From: Escherichia phage Shy
Sequence record: OR996328
Length of the DNA: 42,805 bases
Strand: one strand, 5' to 3'
The position numbers and the translations under genes are program-made. Under the pieces are notes generated by a model. That model was not told where the DNA came from. It was given only the letters and a program-made list of their open reading frames with translations, and did not search any database. Positions 3,628 to 34,891 of this stretch are shown one piece after another. Numbering within the stretch: the stretch's first letter is position 1; every line of letters starts with the position of its first letter.

Positions 3628-4728
3628 ATGGCACGCGTATTATTGAATCGGAACCCGCCAAACGCGAAACGTTTGTTCGACGTAATCACGCGCCAACAAA
3701 TCTACGTCGAAGGCGTAAAGCTGTCGGAAGCGAACACGTTTCGCAAAGTGGTTCAAGAACTGTCGGACGAATTCCGCCAACTGTTAAGCCGCTTGCAATA
3801 CAGTACGCTTGACGGAATGACCAAGGCGGAACTTAACCGGTTTATCGTGACGCTTCGTAAATCGCAATCGAAGATTTACAACAAGTACACGCAAGACCTG
3901 TTAGACCAACTTTACGCATTCATGCGAACCGATAAGCGCGTATCGCTTCGCGTTTACGGCGCGTTGGTTTCGGATAGCGACGACGTAACGGAAGACGAAG
4001 CCGACGACCTGTTGCAACAGTCGAAAGACGAATCGTTGTTCGTGCCGCTATTCGGTTGGGCGTCGCTTGCGCGGTCGGAAGACGGCGATTCGCGGTTGTG
4101 GTCTACCATCGCGAACAACCCGATTCCGGCTAACGGCCTGTTGCTTGGCGCGTTTATCGCCGGGTTCAGCAAGTCGGCGCAAGCCGCAGTCGAAAACCTG
4201 ATTCGTCAAGGTTGGGCGAATCAATGGACGGTTAACCAGACCATCGCCGCGATTACGGGCAACCGTGGCGCACTCGACCGCATTTACAGCCAGAACACCG
4301 CAGTAACAGCAACCGTTATTCAGCATATCGCCCAAAGCGTCGGGGCCGCCGTGTCGTCGGCCTTTGCGGGGCGGTATCGTTGGGATTCGATAATCGACAA
4401 TGCGACGACCGAAATTTGCCGGGGGCGTAACCAACGTGTTTACGTCTTCGGAAGGGGGCCACTTCCCCCGGCGCATATTCGGTGCCGTTCGCGCATTACG
4501 CCGATTTTCGGAAACGGCCCGACGGATGGTGACGGAAGCGACGAAACGTTTTATACTTGGTCGCGTCGCCAACCTGAAAGTTTCTTGCGCGACGCATTTA
4601 CGAAAGAAGCGGCCGACGCGCTAACCAGCGGTAAGGCACGCGCAAAAGACTTCACCGAATACCGGGCCGAAAAACCCGTATCGGTTGAACAGTACGCCGA
4701 CAAAGTGTCGGATATTTTGAAACGCTAA
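3628..4728 (+). CDS. head morphogenesis protein (Mu F / SPP1 gp7-like)
   Basis: 366 aa immediately after portal; C-terminal CRGRNQRVYVFGRGPLPPAHIRCRSR region resembles Mu-F-like minor head proteins. Confidence 0.55.
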   Translation: MARVLLNRNPPNAKRLFDVITRQQIYVEGVKLSEANTFRKVVQELSDEFRQLLSRLQYSTLDGMTKAELNRFIVTLRKSQSKIYNKYTQDLLDQLYAFMRTDKRVSLRVYGALVSDSDDVTEDEADDLLQQSKDESLFVPLFGWASLARSEDGDSRLWSTIANNPIPANGLLLGAFIAGFSKSAQAAVENLIRQGWANQWTVNQTIAAITGNRGALDRIYSQNTAVTATVIQHIAQSVGAAVSSAFAGRYRWDSIIDNATTEICRGRNQRVYVFGRGPLPPAHIRCRSRITPIFGNGPTDGDGSDETFYTWSRRQPESFLRDAFTKEAADALTSGKARAKDFTEYRAEKPVSVEQYADKVSDILKR

Positions 4729-4744
4729 CGAAAGGTAAACCGAA

Positions 4745-5446
4745 ATGGCGCTGAAACTCAAAATCACTAAAGAAGTTTTCGACAAGCTGTCGGATGCCGT
4801 CAAAGCCGAATACTTCGAAAAAGATGGCGAATACCATCTTGACGTTGACGGACTGGAAGATACCGGCGCACTTCGCCGCGCAAAAGACCACGAAGTCAAA
4901 CAGCGTAAAGAAGTCGAAGGCAAGTTGCGCGACGCCGAAGAACAAATCGCAACGCTTACCAGCGAAGTTCAAGGCAACGCCGCCAAGTTCGATAAAGAAC
5001 TGAAAAAGCAACTTGGCGAGAAAGACGGCCAGTTGACGAAGGCGAACGCGTTTATCCAATCGACTTTGGTTGATTCGGTCGCAACCAAAATCGCAACCGA
5101 AATCAGTACCGCCCCGGCGTTGCTGATTCCCCACATTAAGGCCCGTCTTACCGCTGACCTTAGCGGCGACGCCCCGGCTACCAAAGTCCTTGGGGCCGAT
5201 GGTAAACCGTCCGAAACGACCATCGAACAACTTACCGCCGAATTTGTTGCCAACAAGGATTTTTCTGCTATTATCCGGGGTAACAAAGCGTCCGGGGGCG
5301 GTGCCCCTAAGACTGGCGCTTCTGTCAACGGCGGTGCCGGTAAGTTCAACAACGATTCCGACAAACCCGCCGACCTGTCGAAACTGAGTCCCCGCGACCT
5401 TGCGGCCCGGATTCAGGCGCAGAAGGCGGAAGCAAACAACCAGTAA
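4745..5446 (+). CDS. capsid scaffolding protein
   Basis: 233 aa, charged, coiled-coil-like (KQRKEVEGKLRDAEEQIATLTSEV), directly upstream of major capsid gene. Confidence 0.55.
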   Translation: MALKLKITKEVFDKLSDAVKAEYFEKDGEYHLDVDGLEDTGALRRAKDHEVKQRKEVEGKLRDAEEQIATLTSEVQGNAAKFDKELKKQLGEKDGQLTKANAFIQSTLVDSVATKIATEISTAPALLIPHIKARLTADLSGDAPATKVLGADGKPSETTIEQLTAEFVANKDFSAIIRGNKASGGGAPKTGASVNGGAGKFNNDSDKPADLSKLSPRDLAARIQAQKAEANNQ

Positions 5447-5461
5447 TAAGGACGCTATATC

Positions 5462-6430
5462 ATGGCACTTTCCGACCTCGCGGTATATTCCGAATACGCC
5501 TATTCTTCGATGACCGAAGTTCTGGCGCAGCAAATCGAACTGTTCAACGGCGCTTCCGACGGCGTTATCGTTCTGGTTCCGGCCGCGCATCAAGGCGACT
5601 ACTCCGACGAAGCCTTCTTCGCGAAGATTTCCGGTCTGGTTCGCCGCCGTAACGCTTACGGTTCCGGCGCAATCGCACAAAAGACCCTGAAACATCTGGT
5701 CGATACGTCCGTTAAGGTCGCGGCCGGTACTTCCGAAATCCGCCTTGACCCCGGCCAGTTCCGTTGGATTCAACAGAACCCCGAAGTCGCTGGCGCGGCA
5801 CTCGGTCAACAACTGGCGGGCGACCTGCTGGCCGATATGCTGAACACCGCTATCGGTTGCGGTGTTTCGGCCCTGTCGGCGCAATCCGCCGTCGTCAAAG
5901 ACGATTCGACTTCCGACCCGTCTTTCGTCGGCCTGACCGAAGCCGCTGGCCTGTTCGGCGACCGTCAAAACGCCATTCGTGCATGGATTATGCATTCGAC
6001 GCCGGTTACTAAACTGTACGTCAATGCGCTGACCAACGCCGAAAACCTGTTCAAGTACGACACGGTTAACGTTATCCGTGACCCGTTCGGCCGTCTGTTC
6101 GTCGTGACCGACTCGCCGTCGCTGCAATGGTCGGTAACTACCCCGTCCCCGGCTTCCGGCTTTATGTCGCTGGGTCTGGTACAGGGCGGTATCTACGTCG
6201 GTCAAAACAACGACTTCGACGCCGCCGAAACCGTGGCAACCGGTGACGAAAACATCAAACGGACTTACCAAGCCGAATGGTCGTACAACGTCGGTATTCA
6301 GGGCTTCGCATGGGACAAGCCGAACGGCGGCAAATCGCCGACCGATGCGGCGCTGTTCACGGCGTCGAATTGGGATAAGTATTCCACTTCGCACAAAGAC
6401 CTTGCGGGCGTTCTGTACAAGACCAAGTAA
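5462..6430 (+). CDS. major capsid protein
   Basis: 322 aa after scaffold gene; preferred-codon usage; followed by a strong intrinsic terminator. Confidence 0.75.
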   Translation: MALSDLAVYSEYAYSSMTEVLAQQIELFNGASDGVIVLVPAAHQGDYSDEAFFAKISGLVRRRNAYGSGAIAQKTLKHLVDTSVKVAAGTSEIRLDPGQFRWIQQNPEVAGAALGQQLAGDLLADMLNTAIGCGVSALSAQSAVVKDDSTSDPSFVGLTEAAGLFGDRQNAIRAWIMHSTPVTKLYVNALTNAENLFKYDTVNVIRDPFGRLFVVTDSPSLQWSVTTPSPASGFMSLGLVQGGIYVGQNNDFDAAETVATGDENIKRTYQAEWSYNVGIQGFAWDKPNGGKSPTDAALFTASNWDKYSTSHKDLAGVLYKTK

Positions 6431-6444
6431 GGGCCGCGACGGGG

Positions 6445-6466
6445 CGGGGGCTTCGGCCCCCGTTTT
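6445..6466 (+). terminator. rho-independent terminator after major capsid gene
   Basis: CGGGGGC-TTCG-GCCCCCG 7-bp GC stem with TTCG tetraloop followed by TTTT. Confidence 0.7.
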
Positions 6467-6493
6467 CGCAACTAACCGACGGGAATTACGGCA

Positions 6494-6991
6494 ATGAATC
6501 TCAAACAACCGAAAATCATTTTCTTTATCGACGGGCCTGTTCCGTCGGAAGCCGAAAAGCTGGACGCTTTCGATTTGGGCGTCCCGGTTCAGTTCCGCAA
6601 CGCGCAACACGTTAGCCGCATCGAAGAAGAATGCGACGGCGTTACCGGTCACGTACCCGAAGCGTACAAAGACCATCCGACGGCCGAAGACGCTTTGAAG
6701 GCGTACAAAGCCGAAGTGAAGAAAGCGCGTGCGAAACTGCTGGAAGTCGGCGGCAAAGCCCCGAAACCGGGCGAATCGACCGAAACCGGTAACAAGACCG
6801 GCGACGGCGACAAAAAGGACGGCCAGCAAGGGGCCGCAGCGGGCCAAGGTGACGCGAACGACGGCAAGGGCGGGCCTACCCCTACCCCGACCGAAGAAGA
6901 CCCCGCCAAGGCCGCCGCAGCCGCCGCAGCGGGCGCACCTGCAACCCCGGCTAAAGGCACCCCGGCCGCTAATGGCTGGAAACAGAACTAA
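6494..6991 (+). CDS. hypothetical head-associated protein with low-complexity Ala/Gly/Pro-rich C-terminus; paralog of next gene
   Basis: 165 aa; N-terminal region (IIFFIDGPVPSEAEK...CDGVTGHVPEAY) aligns with the N-terminus of the 7053-7514 product. Confidence 0.5.
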   Translation: MNLKQPKIIFFIDGPVPSEAEKLDAFDLGVPVQFRNAQHVSRIEEECDGVTGHVPEAYKDHPTAEDALKAYKAEVKKARAKLLEVGGKAPKPGESTETGNKTGDGDKKDGQQGAAAGQGDANDGKGGPTPTPTEEDPAKAAAAAAAGAPATPAKGTPAANGWKQN

Positions 6992-6996
6992 GGCCG

Positions 6997-7032
6997 TGCC
7001 CGATGCCGACGGCTTATTGTGGGCATCGGGCA
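6997..7032 (+). other. stable hairpin between paralogous genes (11-bp perfect stem, 14-nt loop)
   Basis: TGCCCGATGCC ... GGCATCGGGCA inverted repeat; no U-tract; 3' arm contains a TGTGGGCA motif copy. Confidence 0.45.
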
Positions 7033-7052
7033 ATTGACAAGGAATCTATTCG

Positions 7053-22712: not shown

Positions 22713-22748
22713 TAGCCCCGCCAGCGCAAGCCAGCGGGGCTAATTTTT
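22713..22748 (+). terminator. intrinsic terminator at convergence of structural and replication blocks
   Basis: TAGCCCCGC-12 nt loop-GCGGGGCTA 9-bp stem followed by ATTTTTA; T-tract overlaps the DNA polymerase stop codon on the other strand. Confidence 0.55.
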
Positions 22749-24882
22749 ACCATCCTTCGCCCGACCCTTCCAAGTCTTCGAACAGGTCTGGACGCTTCGC
22801 CTTCTTCGGCCCGTAATAGCCCATATCCGACAACATATCTTCGGCCATGTTCGTATACTGTTCGAAATCCATATCGGCCGGGAACGCGTCGGGTAAATCC
22901 ATAATCGGGCAAGCGCCTTCGCTATTGCCGACCGTGTTACCGTTCATAATGTAGTTAATCGTTCCGGTAACGCCTTTCGCGTAGTACCAGCGAATCGCCT
23001 TGCCCAAGAATAAGCCGTCTTTTTCGGCACCGCCCTTCACGTTCTTAACCGTTACGAAATCCTTGATATCGCGGCAACTGTTGACCGTTTCGGCAATGGC
23101 CTTACCTTCGATAAGGAAATGCGCAATCGCCTTCGCGCAAATTTCGTTGGTCGGTTGTTTCTTCAACGTGGTTTCGCCGAACACGCCTTTACCCTTGTAC
23201 AGCTTGTCGAACTTCGTACCTTCGGGGAACGTATCGACCCAAGATTTCGACGCCTTGTCGTAATGCTTTTTCAACGCGATATAGTTGTTAACGTCGCGGC
23301 TGAATACGCCTTTGTATTGGGTTTCTTCGGTTTCAAAACCGGTTAGCTTTTCCCATGCGGCGATAATTTCGTTAAGCTGTTCGTACTGGCTTTCGTGCGG
23401 CTTAATAACAATACCGTCGGTGTTCGCCGAAATAACCTTGATGCCCACAAGTTCCAGCATTTCAATTAGCATCAACAACGAAAGTTGGCCGGTCAACGTG
23501 GTTTGAATCAGAAGGTCGGGCGAATACAACGCCGAATACTTCGACCCCAACTTACCGAACGAACCGTTAATCGTAATCTTCAAGCTATCGGCGATAATCT
23601 GGTTAAGTTCTGCGACCGACAGGTCGGAAGACTTCGACAGCCCCTTCGCTTCAAGACGACGCGCAACGATGGTCTTATATACGGTAAGGAACGCCGGGCC
23701 AAGGTGTTTCGGGAAATATCCGTTATTGATAATGATATTCGGGTAATACGATGCAACGTCGCGGTCAATCAACAAGTAACCGTCGCGGGCGTAATGCGCC
23801 GCGCAATTCTCGGTCGAATGCAGACCGCCGACGCCCATTGTATAGACCGAATCGCCGATACGGATTTTCAGACCTTTAAGGAACGACGATTTCGGCCGCC
23901 CTTTTTCGCTGATTACGAACGGTGAATCGACCAACCGTTGCAATATCTGTTGCAACATCGGCGTTTGAAAGTGAACGAAAGCCGGGGGAACGTAATAGTA
24001 TTCGGTGCCCGGCGCAATCTTCGGTTTGCGGGCATAGTATCCGTTCAACTTTTCGCATTCCGCCGACAATACGTGTTCGGCGATTTGCGCATCGGAAAGC
24101 GAACGAAGGTCTTGCCCGTATTCGGTCGAAAGCTGTTCGCGCAACTTGATTTGCGGTTCTAAGTCCTTGAACAGTAGCGCCGTGTTATCCAAGTCGTTTA
24201 CGCAATAGAACCTAACGTTAACCGCCTGTTCGCGGGTCAATATGGTTTCCGGTTCGTATGGCAAGTCTTGCATACGTGGCGCGTGCAAACGCCCCGCATA
24301 CGTCTTCAACGACGCTTGAAGCGGGGCGACTTCGATTAGGTCAACGTGGTTAAACTCCGGTATCCGAATGTTGAATTCTTTTTCTATGTCTTCTTTGCGA
24401 TACGACTTGCGGTCTTTGGTTTCTAGTCCGTAATCCGCGTCGCCTTTAACCGGCCGCTTGTTGTCGTTAATAAGCCGGTTCGTAACGTATTTAAGTACGT
24501 TCATTGGCGCACCGGCCAGCGCAAGGAACAGTAAGAACCGGTCGAACTTGATACCGTTAAAACTGATATGCCGGAACGAATGAACGACCCAATTAAGTTT
24601 GTTCAAATCCGCTTGGCTGAATTGTGGGCAATCTGGCGACAGTTCGAACGTAACAACCTTGTTCGTTGCGATATCCTTAAATGCGATTAGAAAATAGTTC
24701 CAATAACATTCGATATCGAAAACCATAGTACCGCCCCGCGCTTCCCATAGTTCGCGGTCGGTAAATTCAACGTAAGGCCGGTTAATGATTGATGGGAAGG
24801 TTAAGACTTTCGGCACAAACGGGCCTTTCGTCTTCACCTTCGACCGCTTATTCGGCGCTAAATCCAAATCATCGAAGAACAT
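22747..24882 (-). CDS. DNA polymerase with 3'-5' exonuclease domain (family B-like motifs)
   Basis: 711 aa; Exo I-like FDIECY; palm-like DVASYYPNIIIN, KITINGSFGKLG and SANTDGIV. Confidence 0.65.
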   Translation of the reverse strand: MFFDDLDLAPNKRSKVKTKGPFVPKVLTFPSIINRPYVEFTDRELWEARGGTMVFDIECYWNYFLIAFKDIATNKVVTFELSPDCPQFSQADLNKLNWVVHSFRHISFNGIKFDRFLLFLALAGAPMNVLKYVTNRLINDNKRPVKGDADYGLETKDRKSYRKEDIEKEFNIRIPEFNHVDLIEVAPLQASLKTYAGRLHAPRMQDLPYEPETILTREQAVNVRFYCVNDLDNTALLFKDLEPQIKLREQLSTEYGQDLRSLSDAQIAEHVLSAECEKLNGYYARKPKIAPGTEYYYVPPAFVHFQTPMLQQILQRLVDSPFVISEKGRPKSSFLKGLKIRIGDSVYTMGVGGLHSTENCAAHYARDGYLLIDRDVASYYPNIIINNGYFPKHLGPAFLTVYKTIVARRLEAKGLSKSSDLSVAELNQIIADSLKITINGSFGKLGSKYSALYSPDLLIQTTLTGQLSLLMLIEMLELVGIKVISANTDGIVIKPHESQYEQLNEIIAAWEKLTGFETEETQYKGVFSRDVNNYIALKKHYDKASKSWVDTFPEGTKFDKLYKGKGVFGETTLKKQPTNEICAKAIAHFLIEGKAIAETVNSCRDIKDFVTVKNVKGGAEKDGLFLGKAIRWYYAKGVTGTINYIMNGNTVGNSEGACPIMDLPDAFPADMDFEQYTNMAEDMLSDMGYYGPKKAKRPDLFEDLEGSGEGW

Positions 24883-25901
24883 TAGTTTCGAATCCCCGCT
24901 ATTGCGCCCCGGATGCCGTCACCGAAGAAGAACGCTTGACCATTATACGACGTAAAGTCGGCCGACAACATATACGGTTCAATCATCAACAGCAATTTGC
25001 CGTTATACGCTTGGCCCGCTGGCAACCCTTCGACTTCGTATTGCGCCCCGTCCAAGCCGTCGGGATGCGACCGCATTTCGCCTTTTGCGAAGTATACGTT
25101 ACCCGTTGCGGTAAACGAAGCAACGGCCTTAACCGCGTCGAAGAATCCGTCGGGAAGCGGCCACGGGTTAACGTTCTTGTTCAAAATGGCGTCAACATTC
25201 GGCCAGCATTCCGAAAAAAGTTGCGTTTTGATAAACGATTCGTCGTCGAACCAGAACGTCGCGGAAGACGCCGAAAAGCCGAAACCGACTAAATCGCGTT
25301 CCGACTTTGCGATAACTTGCGCGGCGGCTTTCGGGATAACCAAGCCGGGCGGCAAGTCGATTCCGTGCCAGAACTCCAACACGACGATTTTGTTAGTCGC
25401 GTATACGGAATTCGCTTGCAGCAACAAAGACGCTTCAAGAACCGACGCCGCGCCTTCGGTAGCCAGTGCCATAACGGCCGCGAAGCCTTCTTTAATGCGG
25501 TTGTCGATTACGGCGATATTCGGGTCGGGATACGTGGTCGGCATCGACGTTAAATCGACGCACGGTACGACGGCCTTAAACTTGCCCGACTGAATCGTTA
25601 TCCGGCTGTTGTCGCCTTGGGTAATGCTGAACTGTTCCCCACATTTACCAAGGGCCGCCGCCAGCAAGTCGGATTGCGGGCACGCGGTCAAGTCTTCTTC
25701 GATGCGTCGGCCGATGGTCAATTGACCGTCGAACGCGCTAATCGTCTGGTTCTGTATGACTACGTGTTGTTGGTAGATATGACCGCCCTTCTTTTGGGCG
25801 GCCGATACGAATTTCAGGGCTTCAAGGAAACCAGCGGCGGCCGACGTTTCCTTAGCCTTGCGGGCGCGACTGCGACCCTTAGCGGCTGTTGCTTTCGCCA
25901 T
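24882..25901 (-). CDS. putative sliding-clamp-like protein (DnaN-like)
   Basis: 339 aa; RITIQSGKFKAVVPCVDLTSMP region resembles beta-clamp pattern; stop overlaps polymerase start (TAATG). Confidence 0.35.
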   Translation of the reverse strand: MAKATAAKGRSRARKAKETSAAAGFLEALKFVSAAQKKGGHIYQQHVVIQNQTISAFDGQLTIGRRIEEDLTACPQSDLLAAALGKCGEQFSITQGDNSRITIQSGKFKAVVPCVDLTSMPTTYPDPNIAVIDNRIKEGFAAVMALATEGAASVLEASLLLQANSVYATNKIVVLEFWHGIDLPPGLVIPKAAAQVIAKSERDLVGFGFSASSATFWFDDESFIKTQLFSECWPNVDAILNKNVNPWPLPDGFFDAVKAVASFTATGNVYFAKGEMRSHPDGLDGAQYEVEGLPAGQAYNGKLLLMIEPYMLSADFTSYNGQAFFFGDGIRGAIAGIRN

Positions 25902-26115
25902 GTTCGGTACTCCGGTCGATTTCGGTAATCGCGGCTTGAAGGTAGTTCGCCATATCTAGGGCTTCTTCCAACGCGTGTTGCAACCATTCGCGAAGGGTCA
26001 ACGGGTTATTATCGGTCGTTACGCCGTATTTGGCAAGTCCGACGATAGACCGTTGCAACAGCATTTCGCGGTTCTTTTCGACGTTGCTGTCGGGCGATAC
26101 GGTAGGGTTTTGCAT
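25879..26115 (-). CDS. hypothetical small protein
   Basis: 78 aa ORF in replication operon. Confidence 0.3.
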   Translation of the reverse strand: MQNPTVSPDSNVEKNREMLLQRSIVGLAKYGVTTDNNPLTLREWLQHALEEALDMANYLQAAITEIDRSTEHGESNSR

Positions 26116-26124
26116 AACTTATCC

Positions 26125-26355
26125 TTAGAATGGAATGTCGAAGTCATGTTGCGCACAACCGTTAACCAATACTTCGGGCGGCGGTAATGCGTCGTAATAG
26201 TTGCATTTCGGCGGCGTATCCTTGTTCTTAGGGCAACCGTTTTGCGACCAGTGTTCGCAGTTCAAGCAAGTTTGAAGAATCATTGCGCCTTGCATTTCAA
26301 CTTGCAATGCGATTCGCAATTCGGCCTTACGGCGTAGTTGTTCGTTAATATTCAT
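26125..26355 (-). CDS. small Cys-rich protein with SSB-like C-terminal tip (DFDIPF)
   Basis: 76 aa; CLNCEH...GCPKNKDTPPKC...GCAQH; terminal HDFDIPF resembles the bacterial SSB acidic tip (DDDIPF). Confidence 0.4.
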   Translation of the reverse strand: MNINEQLRRKAELRIALQVEMQGAMILQTCLNCEHWSQNGCPKNKDTPPKCNYYDALPPPEVLVNGCAQHDFDIPF

Positions 26356-27988
26356 AGCTCATAATCTCCGGGTACTTTTTGTTAACCCAAACCTTGACCT
26401 TTGACGGAATCCGAAGATTCGGCGACCAGTCTACGGCCTGTTGTGCGGTCGGGAATTCGTCGCCGTCGTAACCTGTACGCGCCCGCCACCAATCCCGCGC
26501 CCGCTTTCCGGCGAATCCGCTATGTTCCAAACAAATAAATTCCTTGAACATCCGAATACCGCAGAAATACGAAACTTTCATCATATCCGGCGCACCTTCT
26601 TTTTGATGCAACGAATACAAGACCTTTTGAACGTCGAAGTATTCGACTTGCGGGAAGTCCGACCGCAATAACGCTTCTTCCGATGCACCGGCAAACAACT
26701 TCGGTTCGAACTTGAATTCGTGACCACAACCCGACGGGGTAGGGAACGGCGAACCGCCGCACCAACGGGCCGACGCGTGGTTGTAGCAACCGCAATTGTC
26801 GCAGATACGAACCGGCGCATCGCCGCCACCTTTACCGGGGCGCTTCGGAATAACCGGGTCGTTGATTGGGCCAAGCCGACGGGTATTACCGGCGAAGTCC
26901 AATACCAGACAATTCGACTTGACGTAATCGAAGCCGGGAATATATGCGGCGAAGTCCGGGTTATATGGACGCGTTCCACGACCCAGCATTTGCACCCAAA
27001 GGCCCGGCGAAAGCGTCGGCCGCATCATGCCGATAAGGTCTATCGGGGGATGGTCAAAGCCGGTCGTAAGTACGCCGTTGTTCACGATGCAACGCACGTT
27101 GCCCTTTTTGAACTGCGCGATACGGTCGTCGCGTTCTTTTGTGGGCATCTTGGAATGAACCGCGACCGCATCAATACCGAATGCGACCATCGTTTCGGCA
27201 ACGTGTTCGGCGTGCTGAATACCCGACGCGAACGTTAGCCAGCAATTCCGGTCGTAACCCTTTTCGACCATTTCGGAAACGCATTTATACGTTATTTCGT
27301 TTTGGTCAACGGCGCGTTCTAACGCCCCTTGCGCGTATTCGCCGCCGTGCAAGCCGACCGACGACAAATCGAATTCGGTTGCGGTAGGCTTTGCGATAGG
27401 CGGGCACAAGAACCCTTCGGCCAACAGGCGGTTAAACCCGTCGATATCCGTAAGGTCGTAACAAATATCGGTGAAGATTCCGTTATCGGTTATATACCCC
27501 ATTTTCATACGATACGGGGTTGCGGTCAAACCGATAACTTTTAGGTACGGATTGATTAAACGCAAGTGTTCGATAATCTTGTTATACATTGACGATTCCT
27601 TGTCGCTTAACAAATGGCATTCGTCAATCAAGATTAAATCGCGGTGCCCGAAAGCGGCGACGTTATTAACAACCGAACCGACGCCACCAAAGATAATTGG
27701 TTGCGCAACGTCTTTCGCTTTCAGGCCAGCGGAATAAATACCGATAGGCGCACCGGGCCAGATTTGAACCAGCTTCGCGGCGTTCTGTTCGATAAGTTCT
27801 TTTACGTGCGTCAACATCAACACGCGTTGCCACGGCCAAGCCATGAAAACGCGGCGTATGAATTCGGCGATTACGATAGACTTACCTGTTCCGGTTGGTA
27901 ATGCGACAACGGGGTTCCCGTCGTTACCGGCTTCGAAATAGTCTTTGATGCTGTTAATCGCTTCGTCTTGATACCAACGCAATAACAT
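26345..27988 (-). CDS. SF2 DNA helicase (DEAD/DEAH-box-like) with C-terminal zinc-ribbon-like Cys cluster
   Basis: 547 aa; Walker A ALPTGTGKS, Walker B/DExH LILIDECHLL, C-terminal CDNCGCYNHASARWCGG. Confidence 0.8.
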   Translation of the reverse strand: MLLRWYQDEAINSIKDYFEAGNDGNPVVALPTGTGKSIVIAEFIRRVFMAWPWQRVLMLTHVKELIEQNAAKLVQIWPGAPIGIYSAGLKAKDVAQPIIFGGVGSVVNNVAAFGHRDLILIDECHLLSDKESSMYNKIIEHLRLINPYLKVIGLTATPYRMKMGYITDNGIFTDICYDLTDIDGFNRLLAEGFLCPPIAKPTATEFDLSSVGLHGGEYAQGALERAVDQNEITYKCVSEMVEKGYDRNCWLTFASGIQHAEHVAETMVAFGIDAVAVHSKMPTKERDDRIAQFKKGNVRCIVNNGVLTTGFDHPPIDLIGMMRPTLSPGLWVQMLGRGTRPYNPDFAAYIPGFDYVKSNCLVLDFAGNTRRLGPINDPVIPKRPGKGGGDAPVRICDNCGCYNHASARWCGGSPFPTPSGCGHEFKFEPKLFAGASEEALLRSDFPQVEYFDVQKVLYSLHQKEGAPDMMKVSYFCGIRMFKEFICLEHSGFAGKRARDWWRARTGYDGDEFPTAQQAVDWSPNLRIPSKVKVWVNKKYPEIMSYEY

Positions 27989-28960
27989 TTAGTCTTTCCC
28001 GTTGATAATTGGTTTCCATTGGTCGCAAGCCTGTTTAATTTCGGCTTCGCCGGGAATAATTGCGTTCCATTGTTCGCAAAACCATCGCGCATTATCAACC
28101 GGCCGGGCCTTCACGCACGAACGGCAATTCTTTTCCGGTAATTCGCCTTTGTGGCAAATGCCTTTATAGTTGCAAAACGAACAAGGAACTTGCGCCGGGC
28201 TGGCCGAAATCTTCGGCATTGGGGTTTGACTTGCGATAACCTTTTCGGCCTTCTGAAACTGTTGTTCGCCAAGGCGCATATTTAGCGGTACGATTTCGAT
28301 ATGCAAGTCGTCGTCGTTCTTGTTCACGTTCAAGTAAACAACGAACCGGAAGTTATACGCATAGCCATACGTCGAAGTTTGCGCGAAGTGTTGCGGCTTC
28401 GAAAGCATCATGCCTTGTTCGCCCAACTTGTTAAAACCGGCCCCGGTTCCGTTGGTCTTGAACTCGCACAACATCGCTTCTTCGATACCGTAATGCGGCG
28501 GCAACTTGATAATACCGTCAAGCGAACCGCCAAAGTGCCCCATTGCGCCGGAAATACGGAATTGCTTTTTCCCCTTGTCTTCTTCGCTGGCGTTCTGGTC
28601 GTCGAATTCCCACACTTGGCACCCGATGCCGCGCAAGTATTCGATAAAGGTTGCTTCTTCACGGTGCCCGCGCTGGAACAGGCGCAACATGCGGCCCGTA
28701 AACTTTTCATGTTTCGCCCAACGGAAATGCAACCAAAGTTTTTGCAAGCAATCGTCGCCGATAAGCGATGCGCCCAAATGCGAACGCGGGCCAGTGTCGT
28801 AAGTTGCGACCGCCCATTTTTCGATATCGTCTTTCAGTCGGTTAGCTACCAACTTAGCGACGCCGGGTTGCATTAAGTCAACGCTTACGCTTGCGGTCTT
28901 TTCCGCTGTTTCGTTCGTATTCGCGTTGTTCCCGAAGATTTCGTTTTGCTGTTCGCTCAT
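27989..28960 (-). CDS. PD-(D/E)xK exonuclease, Cas4/RecB-like with Fe-S Cys cluster
   Basis: 323 aa; N-terminal Cys (GDDCLQK), D...E-x-K (GSLDGII...CEFK), QTSTY, C-terminal CSFCNYKGIC; start may be the internal Met at 28873. Confidence 0.6.
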   Translation of the reverse strand: MSEQQNEIFGNNANTNETAEKTASVSVDLMQPGVAKLVANRLKDDIEKWAVATYDTGPRSHLGASLIGDDCLQKLWLHFRWAKHEKFTGRMLRLFQRGHREEATFIEYLRGIGCQVWEFDDQNASEEDKGKKQFRISGAMGHFGGSLDGIIKLPPHYGIEEAMLCEFKTNGTGAGFNKLGEQGMMLSKPQHFAQTSTYGYAYNFRFVVYLNVNKNDDDLHIEIVPLNMRLGEQQFQKAEKVIASQTPMPKISASPAQVPCSFCNYKGICHKGELPEKNCRSCVKARPVDNARWFCEQWNAIIPGEAEIKQACDQWKPIINGKD

Positions 28961-32381: not shown

Positions 32382-32585
32382 ATGACCCAGCTTGTCACCG
32401 GTTGGCGGGATGAAACCCGGCAACTTCTGTTGAACCGCCCCCGCAACCTTGAATATCAGACCATCGCCAACGAAACCGGTTTGTCTGTTTCGTGGATTCG
32501 TGCGTTCGCGGTAGGCCAGTCGGATAACCCCGGCGTCGTCTTCGTCGAAACCCTTTATGTATATCTGAAAGCAAAGGCCAAGTAA
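32382..32585 (+). CDS. small HTH DNA-binding protein (Cro-like regulator candidate)
   Basis: 67 aa from ATG 32382 (AAGGA RBS); the track's ATG at 32373 abuts the RBS; helix-turn-helix-like YQTIANETGLSVSWIRAF. Confidence 0.4.
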   Translation: MTQLVTGWRDETRQLLLNRPRNLEYQTIANETGLSVSWIRAFAVGQSDNPGVVFVETLYVYLKAKAK

Positions 32586-34891
32586 TGTACCAGAACATAC
32601 CCGAAGAATTGCGGAATACGCCGCATTGGGTAGTTTGGCGTTACGAAGACACGCAAGCCGATAAGCCGACCAAAGTACCGTATTCGCCGCATAATTTCCA
32701 AACGCGGGCGAATGTCAACGAACCGTCAACTTTCGGAACGTTTGAGCAAGCCGCGCAAGCGTGCCAAGACGGATGGTTTAACGGCTTGGGCTTCGTGTTA
32801 ACGCAAAACGACCCGTATTGCTTTATCGACCTTGACGATACGGACGGCGACCCGAAATTGTACGCCGACCAAATCACGATTTACCAACGGCTAGGGTCGT
32901 ATACCGAACTTTCGCCAAGCGGTAAGGGCGTGCATATCATCGTAAAAGGTGCGTTGCCAGCCGGTCGCAAGCGTAACCGTATTGAACTGTATTCGTCCGG
33001 TCGCTTTATGACCATGACGGGTAATTTCCTTAACGGTTCGAACCCGGCTATCGAAGACCGTAACGATATGGTCAACGAACTTTATACCCTGTTGGGCGGT
33101 AAAGAAGAAAAGACATATTACGACGGCAACGAACCACAAACCAAGTCGGACGACGAAGTTATCGAAATCGCACGCAATGCGGAAAACGGCGCGAAGTTTA
33201 TGTCGTTGCATAACGGCGATTGGGTCGGCCTGTATCCGTCGCAATCCGAAGCCGACTTAGCGTATATCAACATTTTGGCGTTTTATACCCAAAACCGCGA
33301 ACAGCTTACCCGGATGTTCAAAGCGTCGCCGTTGGGCGCACGCGACAAACAAACGTCGATTCGTGGCGTCGGTTATATCGACTACATGATTAACAAGTCT
33401 TTCGACCGCATGTTGCCGCCAGTCGATACCGCCGCACTTATGAACCGGCTTAACGAAGCATTGCAACAAAGCCGCGTCGCAGTGCAACAGGAAGCCGCCA
33501 GCGTGCCGACCGCCGAATATATCCCCGAACCCCAAGGCGATACGCCGTACACCGTGCCGCCCGGCCTTATGGGCGAAATCGCGCAATTCATTTACCAGCA
33601 AGCGCCCCGGCCCGTACCGGAAATCGCGCTTACGGCCGCTATTGGCTTGATGGCTGGTATATGTGGGCGTGCGTACAACGTGTCGAATACCGGATTGAAC
33701 CAATACGTTATGTTGTTGGCCCCAACCGGCACCGGTAAAGAAGCAATCGCAAAGGGCATTGAAAAGCTAATGGGACAAGTGCAACGCACCGTGCCAGCGG
33801 CTAACGAATTCATCGGCCCGGCTGAAATCGCATCGGCGCAAGCGTTGGTTAAATATATGTCGAAAGGCCCGACCAGCTTTGTAAGCATCGTCGGCGAAAT
33901 CGGTATCGCATTGCAGCAAATGACCGACCCCCGCGCACCGACGCACCTTGTCGGCTTGCGCCGCCTGTTGCTTGACCTGTTCAACAAGTCCGGCGAAGGT
34001 TCGGTTTTGCGTCCGACCATCTATTCGGATAAAGAAAAGAATACGGCTTCGGTTCTGGCACCGTCTTACACGATGCTAGGCGAATCGACGCCCGAACGCT
34101 TTTACGAATTCCTTGATGAAATGATGATTAGCGAAGGTTTGTTGCCGCGCTTTACCATCATCGAATACCGGGGAAAGCGGCCGTCTATGAACGAAGGCCA
34201 CGCGTTCGTAATGCCGTCGAATGAACTGGTCGAACGTATGGCGCAATTGTGCGCGCAAGCGTTGATGCTGAACAACTCGCATAAAGCGGTGCATATCCGC
34301 GTATCGCCGGAAGCGAAAGAACTGTTCGACGCTTTCAACGAAGAATGCGACAAGCGAATTAACAACGCATCCCGCGAAGTCACGCGCCACCTTTGGAACC
34401 GTGCCCACATTAAGGCCATGAAACTAGCCGGGCTGGTTGCCGTCGGTTGTGACCCGTATAACCCGACCATTGATGCCAGCGCCGCCGCTTGGGCCTTGCG
34501 TATCGTTGAAGCGGATTCGAACAACCTGTTAGGTCGGTTCAATAGCGGCGAAGTCGGCCAGAACAGCAACGAAACCAAACAGCTTAACGAAATGGTACGC
34601 GTGATTCGCGAATACGTCGTTCGGCCTTGGTCGGAAGTGGCGTCGTATGGCGGGTCGGCAATGATGCACGGCGAACGCATTATTCCGTATCCGTACCTTC
34701 AACGTAAATTGGCTAACCTATCCGCTTTCAAAGGCGAACGAATCACGGCATCCGACGTTATCCGACGCACCTTGAAGACGCTTTGCGACCGTGGCGACAT
34801 TGCGGAATTGGGTAAAGGTCAATTGATTGATAAGTTCGGATTCCGTGGCGTTGCGTACATGATTTCGGCACCACGGGCGTTCGGCTTCTAG
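32585..34891 (+). CDS. DNA primase-polymerase (AEP-type N-terminal domain) with C-terminal NTPase-like domain
   Basis: 768 aa; HWVVWRY...KVPY...FIDLDDTDG...GKGVHIIVKG resembles prim-pol domain; degenerate P-loop LLAPTGTGKE downstream. Confidence 0.6.
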   Translation: MYQNIPEELRNTPHWVVWRYEDTQADKPTKVPYSPHNFQTRANVNEPSTFGTFEQAAQACQDGWFNGLGFVLTQNDPYCFIDLDDTDGDPKLYADQITIYQRLGSYTELSPSGKGVHIIVKGALPAGRKRNRIELYSSGRFMTMTGNFLNGSNPAIEDRNDMVNELYTLLGGKEEKTYYDGNEPQTKSDDEVIEIARNAENGAKFMSLHNGDWVGLYPSQSEADLAYINILAFYTQNREQLTRMFKASPLGARDKQTSIRGVGYIDYMINKSFDRMLPPVDTAALMNRLNEALQQSRVAVQQEAASVPTAEYIPEPQGDTPYTVPPGLMGEIAQFIYQQAPRPVPEIALTAAIGLMAGICGRAYNVSNTGLNQYVMLLAPTGTGKEAIAKGIEKLMGQVQRTVPAANEFIGPAEIASAQALVKYMSKGPTSFVSIVGEIGIALQQMTDPRAPTHLVGLRRLLLDLFNKSGEGSVLRPTIYSDKEKNTASVLAPSYTMLGESTPERFYEFLDEMMISEGLLPRFTIIEYRGKRPSMNEGHAFVMPSNELVERMAQLCAQALMLNNSHKAVHIRVSPEAKELFDAFNEECDKRINNASREVTRHLWNRAHIKAMKLAGLVAVGCDPYNPTIDASAAAWALRIVEADSNNLLGRFNSGEVGQNSNETKQLNEMVRVIREYVVRPWSEVASYGGSAMMHGERIIPYPYLQRKLANLSAFKGERITASDVIRRTLKTLCDRGDIAELGKGQLIDKFGFRGVAYMISAPRAFGF

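Follow-up and report, generated by a model that had tools for sequence, protein, structure and literature searches.

The stretch of DNA analysed here (the window) is the 42,805-nucleotide sequence record OR996328 from Escherichia phage Shy, and the subject of this report is a pair of overlapping genes on its minus strand that encode a DNA polymerase and a sliding clamp. The polymerase gene (22747..24882, minus strand) encodes a 711-amino-acid protein that we assign to the crAss-like group of family B DNA polymerases (PolB) with a 3'-5' proofreading exonuclease. The gene that precedes it (24882..25901, minus strand) encodes a 339-amino-acid protein that we assign to the beta-type (DnaN-like) sliding clamps. 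The junction between the two genes reads AAC TAA TG TTC, such that a single A belongs both to the stop codon of the clamp gene and to the start codon of the polymerase gene (TAATG). This arrangement confirms the TAATG junction noted in an earlier reading of the window from its sequence alone (the sequence-only reading), and the coupling makes it likely that both products are made together. The 3.2-kb polymerase/clamp stretch is 99.9% identical to PP954860 (Escherichia phage Halfdan_Juelich_variant) and 98.5% identical to MH362766 / NC_072811 (Escherichia phage Halfdan, genus Lokivirus). The two genes are labelled "DNA polymerase" and "DNA polymerase processivity factor" in PP954860, and "DNA polymerase subunit" and "DNA polymerase III subunit" in MH362766.

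Conservation of the polymerase motifs was assessed in an alignment of 52 homologues that are 47-92% identical to the 711-residue protein. All three exonuclease motifs were present on the minus strand. Exo I (FDIECY, residues 55-60, with D56 and E58; 24703..24720) and Exo III (YCVND, with Y226 and D230; 24193..24207) were invariant, as was D114 of Exo II (FNGIKFD; 24541..24561), while N109 of the same motif was at least 90% conserved. Motif A (DRDVASYYPNIIIN, residues 373-386; 23725..23766, minus strand) contains the catalytic residue D375, and D373, D375, S378, Y380 and P381 were invariant. The segment reads D375-V-A-S-Y-Y-P, which fits the motif A pattern DxxSLYPS, and the form DV[x]S[YF]YP was present in the 80 metagenomic relatives that we retrieved. 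Motif B (KITINGSFGK, residues 435-444; 23551..23580, minus strand) differs from the canonical Kx3NSxYG in having Gly in place of Ser and Phe in place of Tyr; K435, N439, F442 and G443 were invariant. In motif C (SANTDGIV, residues 485-492; 23407..23430, minus strand) N487 replaces the first Asp and the catalytic residue D489 is kept. S485, N487, T488, D489 and G490 did not vary in the alignment, and S[AG]NTDG was found in 80 of 80 metagenomic viral relatives. About 45 residues after motif C lies RDVNNY (23281..23298, minus strand), which by its position would be the counterpart of KxY with Asn in place of the Lys. N532 was invariant and N533 and Y534 were at least 90% conserved, the KxY Lys being absent. 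The motif strings that had been picked out by eye, among them DVASYYPNIIIN as a motif A-like segment, are all present, at residues 55-60, 375-386, 435-444 and 485-492.

Database comparisons and a structure model both pointed to family B. More than 7,000 database proteins matched the polymerase, and a PHROGs search assigned it to phrog_1252 "DNA polymerase" with an expect value (E) of 9e-200. A phmmer search against PDB sequences aligned residues 403-503 with human Pol alpha (E 1e-6, or 9e-9 with the polymerase family profile). In this alignment KITINGSFGKLG stood opposite KLTANSMYGCLG and VISANTDGIVI opposite VIYGDTDSIMI, so that motif B was placed on its counterpart (KITINGSFG on KLTANSMYG) and SANTDG on YGDTDS. 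The fold of the structure model matched Pol alpha and archaeal PolB, as is expected of a PolB with its exonuclease, palm, fingers and thumb. From the motif conservation and the Pol alpha alignment we conclude that the 711-residue protein is a proofreading family B polymerase with Asn at the first Asp of DTD, and that the motif assignment, as judged from the alignments, is not a chance resemblance. The suggestion of a divergent family B polymerase with an atypical motif C was thus borne out by the phrog_1252 match, the fold and the invariant motifs, with Pfam below threshold as described further on.

Profound divergence in motif C and KxY has been reported for the PolBs of crAss-like phages (Kazlauskas et al. 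2020, PMC7544198). The crAssphage PolB fragment given in Table S2 of that paper reads ...TINGQLMMLMLVEELELHNIHVLSANTDGIVIK...SRDINNY, with a motif C identical to that of the 711-residue polymerase, and the two are 33% identical over 255 residues (E 1e-35). The tblastn matches of the polymerase included the crAss-like phages cr1_1, cr56_1 and cr131_1, and its homologue in phage BcepGomr belongs to the PolBmain set of PMC7544198. Together with the crAss-like PolBs (EpsilonN-like clade, PMC7544198) the polymerase has (L/I)SANTDGIVIK, preceded by TxxGQLxLLMLxE and followed by RD(V/I)NNY. It differs in its place on a branch from siphoviruses (Lokivirus, Septimatrevirus, Nonagvirus, Seuratvirus and similar genera) that is about 26-33% identical to the Crassvirales enzymes, and in that the Halfdan-type polymerase is coupled to a beta-type clamp gene. 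On the strength of the signature motifs and pairwise similarity we place the 711-residue polymerase in the crAss-like PolB group. As Asn occupies the first DTD position in every family member, it is best seen as a signature of the lineage and not as a defect. Replacement of the first motif C Asp with retention of the second is also found in archaeal PolB2/Dpo2 and in PolB_SITDG (PMC7390963; PMC7544198). Dpo2 has lost its exonuclease domain and has a role in damage tolerance, whereas the 711-residue polymerase has the full set of proofreading motifs and Asn in motif C; the PolB_SITDG enzymes of cyanobacteria and algae carry a hydrophobic residue in place of the first Asp.

The 339-residue protein was modelled with AlphaFold2 (AF2) at a predicted local distance difference test score (pLDDT) of 91.5 and a predicted template modelling score of 0.85. 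The model contains three clamp-domain repeats, each consisting of a helix, three strands, a second helix and three further strands, after a disordered tail of 17-22 residues. Approximate boundaries place domain I at residues 23-125 (25527..25835), domain II at residues 126-245 (25167..25526, from the model together with profile alignments) and domain III at residues 246-339 (24885..25166), all on the minus strand. When the model was searched against the PDB with Foldseek, the best 50 matches were all bacterial beta clamps aligned over their full length (about 360 columns; E about 1e-18; template modelling score 0.68-0.77; 11-15% identity). A PHROGs search returned phrog_947 "DNA polymerase processivity factor" (E 9e-60). 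A single-sequence phmmer search of the clamp against the PDB was fruitless, its only match being a spurious one to a thioredoxin, and a profile search was therefore needed for detection of DnaN. With a profile of 51 homologues, positions 78-297 were collinear with residues 75-316 of Helicobacter pylori DnaN over 220 positions (E 5e-4), including the (L/F)xxxxYP(D/N)(Y/V) segment. In domain II, ATNK(I)VVL stood opposite ATDGHRL of the Escherichia coli clamp and TQLF..WPN opposite SKLVDGRFPDY. The clamp family comprises 1,763 representatives at the 50% identity level (E <=1e-3). From the model we conclude that the 339-residue protein is predicted to have the full three-domain DnaN-type clamp fold. 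The sequence-only reading had seen a resemblance to a beta clamp in the central region; the H. pylori profile match supports this view, and the modelled fold extends the likeness to the entire protein and excludes an unrelated fold.

The clamp begins with a basic tail (MAKATAAKGRSRARKAKETSAA, residues 1-22; 25836..25901, minus strand) that contains an RARK motif and is predicted to be disordered, with pLDDT below 50 for residues 1-17. The isoelectric point (pI) of the tail is 11.7 compared to 4.9 for the core, and a basic tail with RARK recurs across the phage clamp family. An acidic core is typical of clamps, and we know of no such basic N-terminal tail in bacterial DnaN/beta. The tail might bind DNA or a loader.

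Linkage of the two genes was examined in two sets of metagenomic loci from IMG/VR, 80 retrieved with the polymerase and 78 retrieved with the clamp. In the polymerase-retrieved set the clamp gene lay directly upstream of the polymerase in 67 of 78 loci. Among the clamp-retrieved loci, a polymerase of the family followed directly in 69 of 78 and lay 2.5 kb downstream in one more; three ended too soon to tell, and the remaining five had a family A polymerase (PolA) downstream of the clamp. The clamp in these five loci was of the same family (E 1e-117 to 1e-150). The five PolAs (L085:3694-5742, L086:7002-9044, L107:6344-8419, L148:7196-9196 and L152:3893-5893, on metagenomic contigs) contain a 3'-5' exonuclease and match Pfam DNA_pol_A with E values of 1e-57 to 1e-68. 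We conclude that PolA at the position of PolB is an in-situ replacement of one polymerase family by another with the clamp retained. The N-termini of the five PolAs, MFFDDE or MSLFFDD, resemble the MFFDDLDL start of the 711-residue PolB.

Both ends of the polymerase carry short hydrophobic peptides in regions of low predicted order. The N-terminal peptide MFFDDLDL (24859..24882, minus strand), a candidate clamp- or replisome-docking motif, is predicted to be disordered, and the family consensus starts with MFFxD. The C-terminal tail RPDLFEDLEGSGEGW (residues 697-711; 22750..22794, minus strand) contains DLF as a candidate clamp-binding peptide, followed by an acidic segment that ends in Trp. 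The pLDDT of the polymerase model was below 50 for residues 695-711, and the N-terminus was also modelled with low confidence and is presumably disordered. The presence of such peptides varied with the clamp. A C-terminal LF or FF (...QxxLF, ...LFF or ...LFD) was found in 36 of 41 and in 57 of 61 polymerases that are paired with the Halfdan-type clamp subfamily, and in none of 25 that are paired with a distant clamp subfamily. Polymerases of the latter group instead started with ...GFFWDD followed by a basic proline-rich linker (23 of 25). In clamp-less polymerases the region before Exo I was short in all but one of 12 and contained FF/LF in 0 of 12, and a C-terminal LF was present in only 1 of 11. 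The C-terminal ends of relatives include KQASLF, KQIGLF, QLKFF and QLQFF, and that of E. coli Pol II is GQLGLF. As FF[DE][DE] occurs at a background frequency of only about 3e-5 per residue in open reading frames (ORFs), the N-terminal FFDD shared by PolA and PolB is unlikely to be due to chance, even when counted as a single event. From these patterns we infer that the terminal FF/LF peptides are clamp-docking elements.

A longer N-terminal module shared by the PolAs and the PolBs with a distant clamp (FFDD, a basic linker and PPxPExxW..P..LPxL) was considered and rejected. MAFFT lined the sequences up, but a hidden Markov model built from 18 PolB N-terminal peptides did not retrieve the PolA N-termini from 2,532 ORFs, all of its matches having E >3, and our claim of N-terminal similarity between PolA and PolB is confined to the short FFDD start. 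In the Halfdan subgroup the acidic tail that follows DLF ends in a conserved Trp (…EGW, …ESW, …GTW, …LEW, …DNW). The tail resembles the acidic, aromatic-ended tails that bind partners in other replisome proteins.

The interpretation that we favour, with a probability of roughly 0.75, is that a proofreading PolB replicase is tethered by terminal FF/LF peptides to a phage-encoded ring of the beta type, that the two are produced from coupled genes, and that the ring gets onto DNA either through the host DnaX complex or by self-loading. What the analysis itself shows is the family assignment, the folds, the motif conservation, the gene linkage and the co-variation of the terminal peptides with clamp presence; the dimeric ring, the contact between peptide and pocket and the route of loading are inferences. 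The two genes would encode the core replicase of the phage. The 711-residue protein would be a primer-dependent, proofreading PolB with a compact N-terminus and the catalytic Asp residues D375 (motif A) and D489 (motif C). Most likely, two clamp subunits join head to tail in a ring that encircles DNA and would hold the polymerase in place for processive synthesis. Tethering would probably occur through the FF/LF peptides in the disordered polymerase termini, MFFDD at the N-terminus and DLF at the C-terminus, with these peptides occupying a pocket of the clamp in a manner akin to binding of the C-terminal QLGLF of E. coli Pol II to the host beta clamp. Because the phage encodes no clamp loader, the ring would presumably be loaded by the host DnaX complex or by itself.

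Several observations weigh against this interpretation. A clamp loader-like AAA+ protein was not found among all sizeable unannotated ORFs of the genome, and a ring model consequently needs a host factor or self-loading. The match of the polymerase to Pfam PF00136 (DNA_pol_B) reached 14.4 bits compared to a cutoff of 23, a threshold that is passed by a few of its close homologues, and NCBIfam gave weak partial PolB matches; these results explain why the polymerase looks odd by eye. The clamp had no match in Pfam or NCBIfam. With these two resources empty or sub-threshold, the family assignments rest on PHROGs, on the profile search against the PDB and on the predicted folds. When the clamp profile was compared with the single E. 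coli DnaN sequence using hhalign the match was weak (E 0.086), too weak for mapping of individual pocket residues. In bacterial beta clamps this pocket is a hydrophobic cleft between domains II and III that takes up partner peptides of the QL[SD]LF type. In the weak alignment to the ATDGHRL pocket segment, the Thr that corresponds to T172 of E. coli is retained (ATNG) but H175 and R176 are not. The DLF of the 711-residue polymerase is 10 residues from the C-terminus, whereas the motif is at the extreme end in most relatives. The co-variation of peptides and clamps is also phylogenetically clustered: the polymerase groups are clades, and few independent events therefore lie behind it. Finally, we found no experimental or biochemical study of this phage beta clamp and PolB family in the literature that we searched.

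A broader form of the same idea, which we put forward as tentative and somewhat short of an even chance, is that the replisome of this phage lineage has the beta-type clamp as its fixed centre, onto which unrelated polymerase cores (crAss-like PolB or proofreading PolA) dock by means of portable (M)FF(W)DD and/or QxxLF peptides. A phage loader would not be needed, as the host DnaX complex would be borrowed or the clamp would load itself with help from its basic tail. Portable docking peptides would explain why in-situ swaps between PolA and PolB are tolerated.

It is also conceivable that the clamp-fold protein is a loader-independent factor similar to UL42, i.e. a monomer or open dimer that binds DNA directly with help from the basic tail. 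The failure to find a loader-like AAA+ protein and the conserved, very basic disordered tail with its RARK motif are what this explanation would predict. Moreover, fewer than half of the viral clamps and processivity factors are accompanied by loaders and some do not form rings, and herpesvirus UL30/UL42 likewise combines a viral PolB with a clamp-fold accessory protein in the absence of a clamp loader (PMC4889955). However, the 339-residue model superposes on complete DnaN subunits of three domains, which are known to assemble into a closed dimer, and an infected cell can supply clamp loaders of the host. The acidic clamp core also differs from UL42, in which the DNA-binding face is basic. 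On balance we consider a UL42-like factor unlikely.

Alternatively, the clamp could function mainly in host takeover by competing or forming heterodimers with DnaN, or by titrating the loader and clamp-binding proteins, in which case host replication would be shut down or host enzymes recruited and processivity would be secondary. Its fold is that of the host protein, homologues of PolIII-beta are sometimes present in viral genomes that have no polymerase gene (PMC4889955), and use of the host clamp by phages has precedents such as late transcription of phage Mu (PMC12867686). This role is nevertheless quite improbable: in nearly all loci (69+5 of the 78) the clamp gene stands in operon order with a polymerase gene and is translationally coupled to it, the terminal peptides of the polymerase co-vary with clamp presence and subfamily, and an identity of 11-12% to host clamps makes heterodimers unlikely.

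We give hardly any weight to the view that Asn for Asp in motif C and Asn for Lys at KxY mark an impaired or specialised enzyme (repair or lesion bypass), with host Pol III using the phage clamp to copy the phage genome. In favour of this view, classical PolBs rarely depart from the first Asp of YGDTDS, and Dpo2, in which this Asp is likewise missing, was for a long time expected to have no activity and functions in damage tolerance (PMC7390963). Against it, N487 is invariant (more than 7,000 matches; 80 of 80 loci) and hence under selection, D375, D489 and all of the exonuclease residues are invariant in an enzyme that, unlike Dpo2, has an exonuclease domain, it is the sole polymerase in many lytic phages including crAss-like phages, and its in-situ replacement by a proofreading PolA implies a replicative role. 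An inactive polymerase resulting from the D-to-N change was rejected on the same grounds of invariance, retained catalytic residues and genomic role.

The system that we propose, a PolB replicase tethered to a phage-encoded beta-type ring, can be compared with two well-known polymerase/clamp pairs. E. coli Pol II and DnaN also combine a family B polymerase with a three-domain beta-type clamp, and many Halfdan-family polymerases, like Pol II, have LF-type C-terminal ends. Pol II serves repair and restart in the cell, has a canonical DTDS and works with the clamp and DnaX loader of the host, whereas in the window the clamp is phage-encoded, is 11-12% identical to DnaN, has a basic N-terminal tail and is accompanied by no cognate loader gene; the 711-residue polymerase has the N-terminal FFDD peptide in addition. 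In T4/RB69, as proposed here, a phage PolB (gp43) is tethered to a phage-encoded sliding clamp (gp45), with gp44/62 as the third component. Tethering of gp43 to gp45 is by a C-terminal hydrophobic peptide. The two systems differ in clamp architecture and loading: gp45 forms PCNA-like trimers of two-domain subunits and has a loader of its own (PMC4889955), as opposed to a three-domain clamp of the bacterial type with no loader encoded.

We also determined how common the two genes are by tblastn against a phage collection of 50,697 records. The clamp had a homologue in 302 records and the polymerase in 963. Hosts of the clamp-bearing phages include Pseudomonas, Escherichia, Stenotrophomonas, Vibrio, Xanthomonas, Rhizobium and Acinetobacter, and the phages themselves include 73, Kakheti25, Ab26, DLP1/2, Loki, 9g, CAjan, PaMx25 and BcepGomr. 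Since about 2012-2015 the clamp has usually been annotated as "replicative clamp", "DNA polymerase III beta subunit" or "processivity factor". The pair has been described for Kakheti25, DLP1 and DLP2, with the order polymerase, replicative clamp, DEAD-box helicase and RecB-type exonuclease in DLP1 and DLP2 (PMC4559383), and PolIII-beta homologues constitute one of three groups of viral processivity factors (PMC4889955). The idea that a divergent PolB with its own clamp would make an unusual phage replisome did not hold up, given this wide occurrence, the published pair and the existing annotation in the near-identical PP954860. We conclude that, as far as annotation and comparative genomics go, the polymerase/clamp finding is not new.

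Taken alone, annotation of an NTDG-type PolB and its clamp is of little importance, as the genes are already correctly named, both the group and its motif C have been published, and beta-clamp homologues of phages have been catalogued. Two findings are new in a modest way, namely that the terminal peptides co-vary with the clamp and that PolA and PolB are swapped with the clamp retained, and both need phylogenetic correction; a 2024 paper on polymerase swapping nowhere mentions clamps (PMC11348598). The polymerase family has thousands of metagenomic homologues, including those of crAss-like gut phages, and Halfdan, which grows on E. coli K-12, would be a convenient model for studies of the processivity of NTDG-type PolBs, of clamp loading without a phage loader and of the targets of the FF/LF peptides, as well as of a shared docking peptide as the feature that may permit polymerase swapping.

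The polymerase and clamp genes are part of a leftward replication operon. Upstream of them on the minus strand lie genes for a superfamily 2 (RadD-like) DNA helicase (26345..27988; Pfam ResIII and Helicase_C, and NCBIfam RadD with E 5e-81, below the curated cutoff) and a Cas4/RecB-type PD-(D/E)XK exonuclease (27989..28960; PHROG 1990, E 9e-99). Further products of the operon are two small proteins, a zinc-finger protein, a DUF669 protein of the single-stranded DNA-binding type, a Sak4-like AAA_24 ATPase, a DUF7173 protein and MazG. Two small conserved ORFs between the clamp and helicase genes (25879-26115 and 26125-26355, both on the minus strand) have no Pfam match; one encodes a protein of 78-100 residues (phrog_11184) and the other a cysteine-rich protein of 76 residues (phrog_23504; CLNC…C…C…C) that looks like a zinc ribbon from its cysteine pattern. 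Divergent from the leftward operon is the gene for a 768-residue primase-helicase (32585..34891, plus strand), annotated as DNA primase/helicase in MH362766, with an NrS-1-like PrimPol helix-bundle domain and DUF3987 (Pfam PF22763 and PF13148). This "DNA primase" is a PrimPol-helicase fusion and not a DnaG-type primase.

Two further observations concern the related records. The host label of PP954860 is Pseudomonas taiwanensis (soil, Germany), whereas the original Halfdan was isolated on E. coli MG1655; the mismatch reflects either a cross-order host range or an inconsistency in naming or host labelling. The same record has a 674-residue minus-strand "hypothetical protein" (4652-7033) inside the head module. 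Plus-strand ORFs of 233 residues (4745-5446) and 322 residues (5462-6430) lie opposite this call, are in line with the flanking head genes and are not annotated, and the antisense ORF is probably a spurious gene call.

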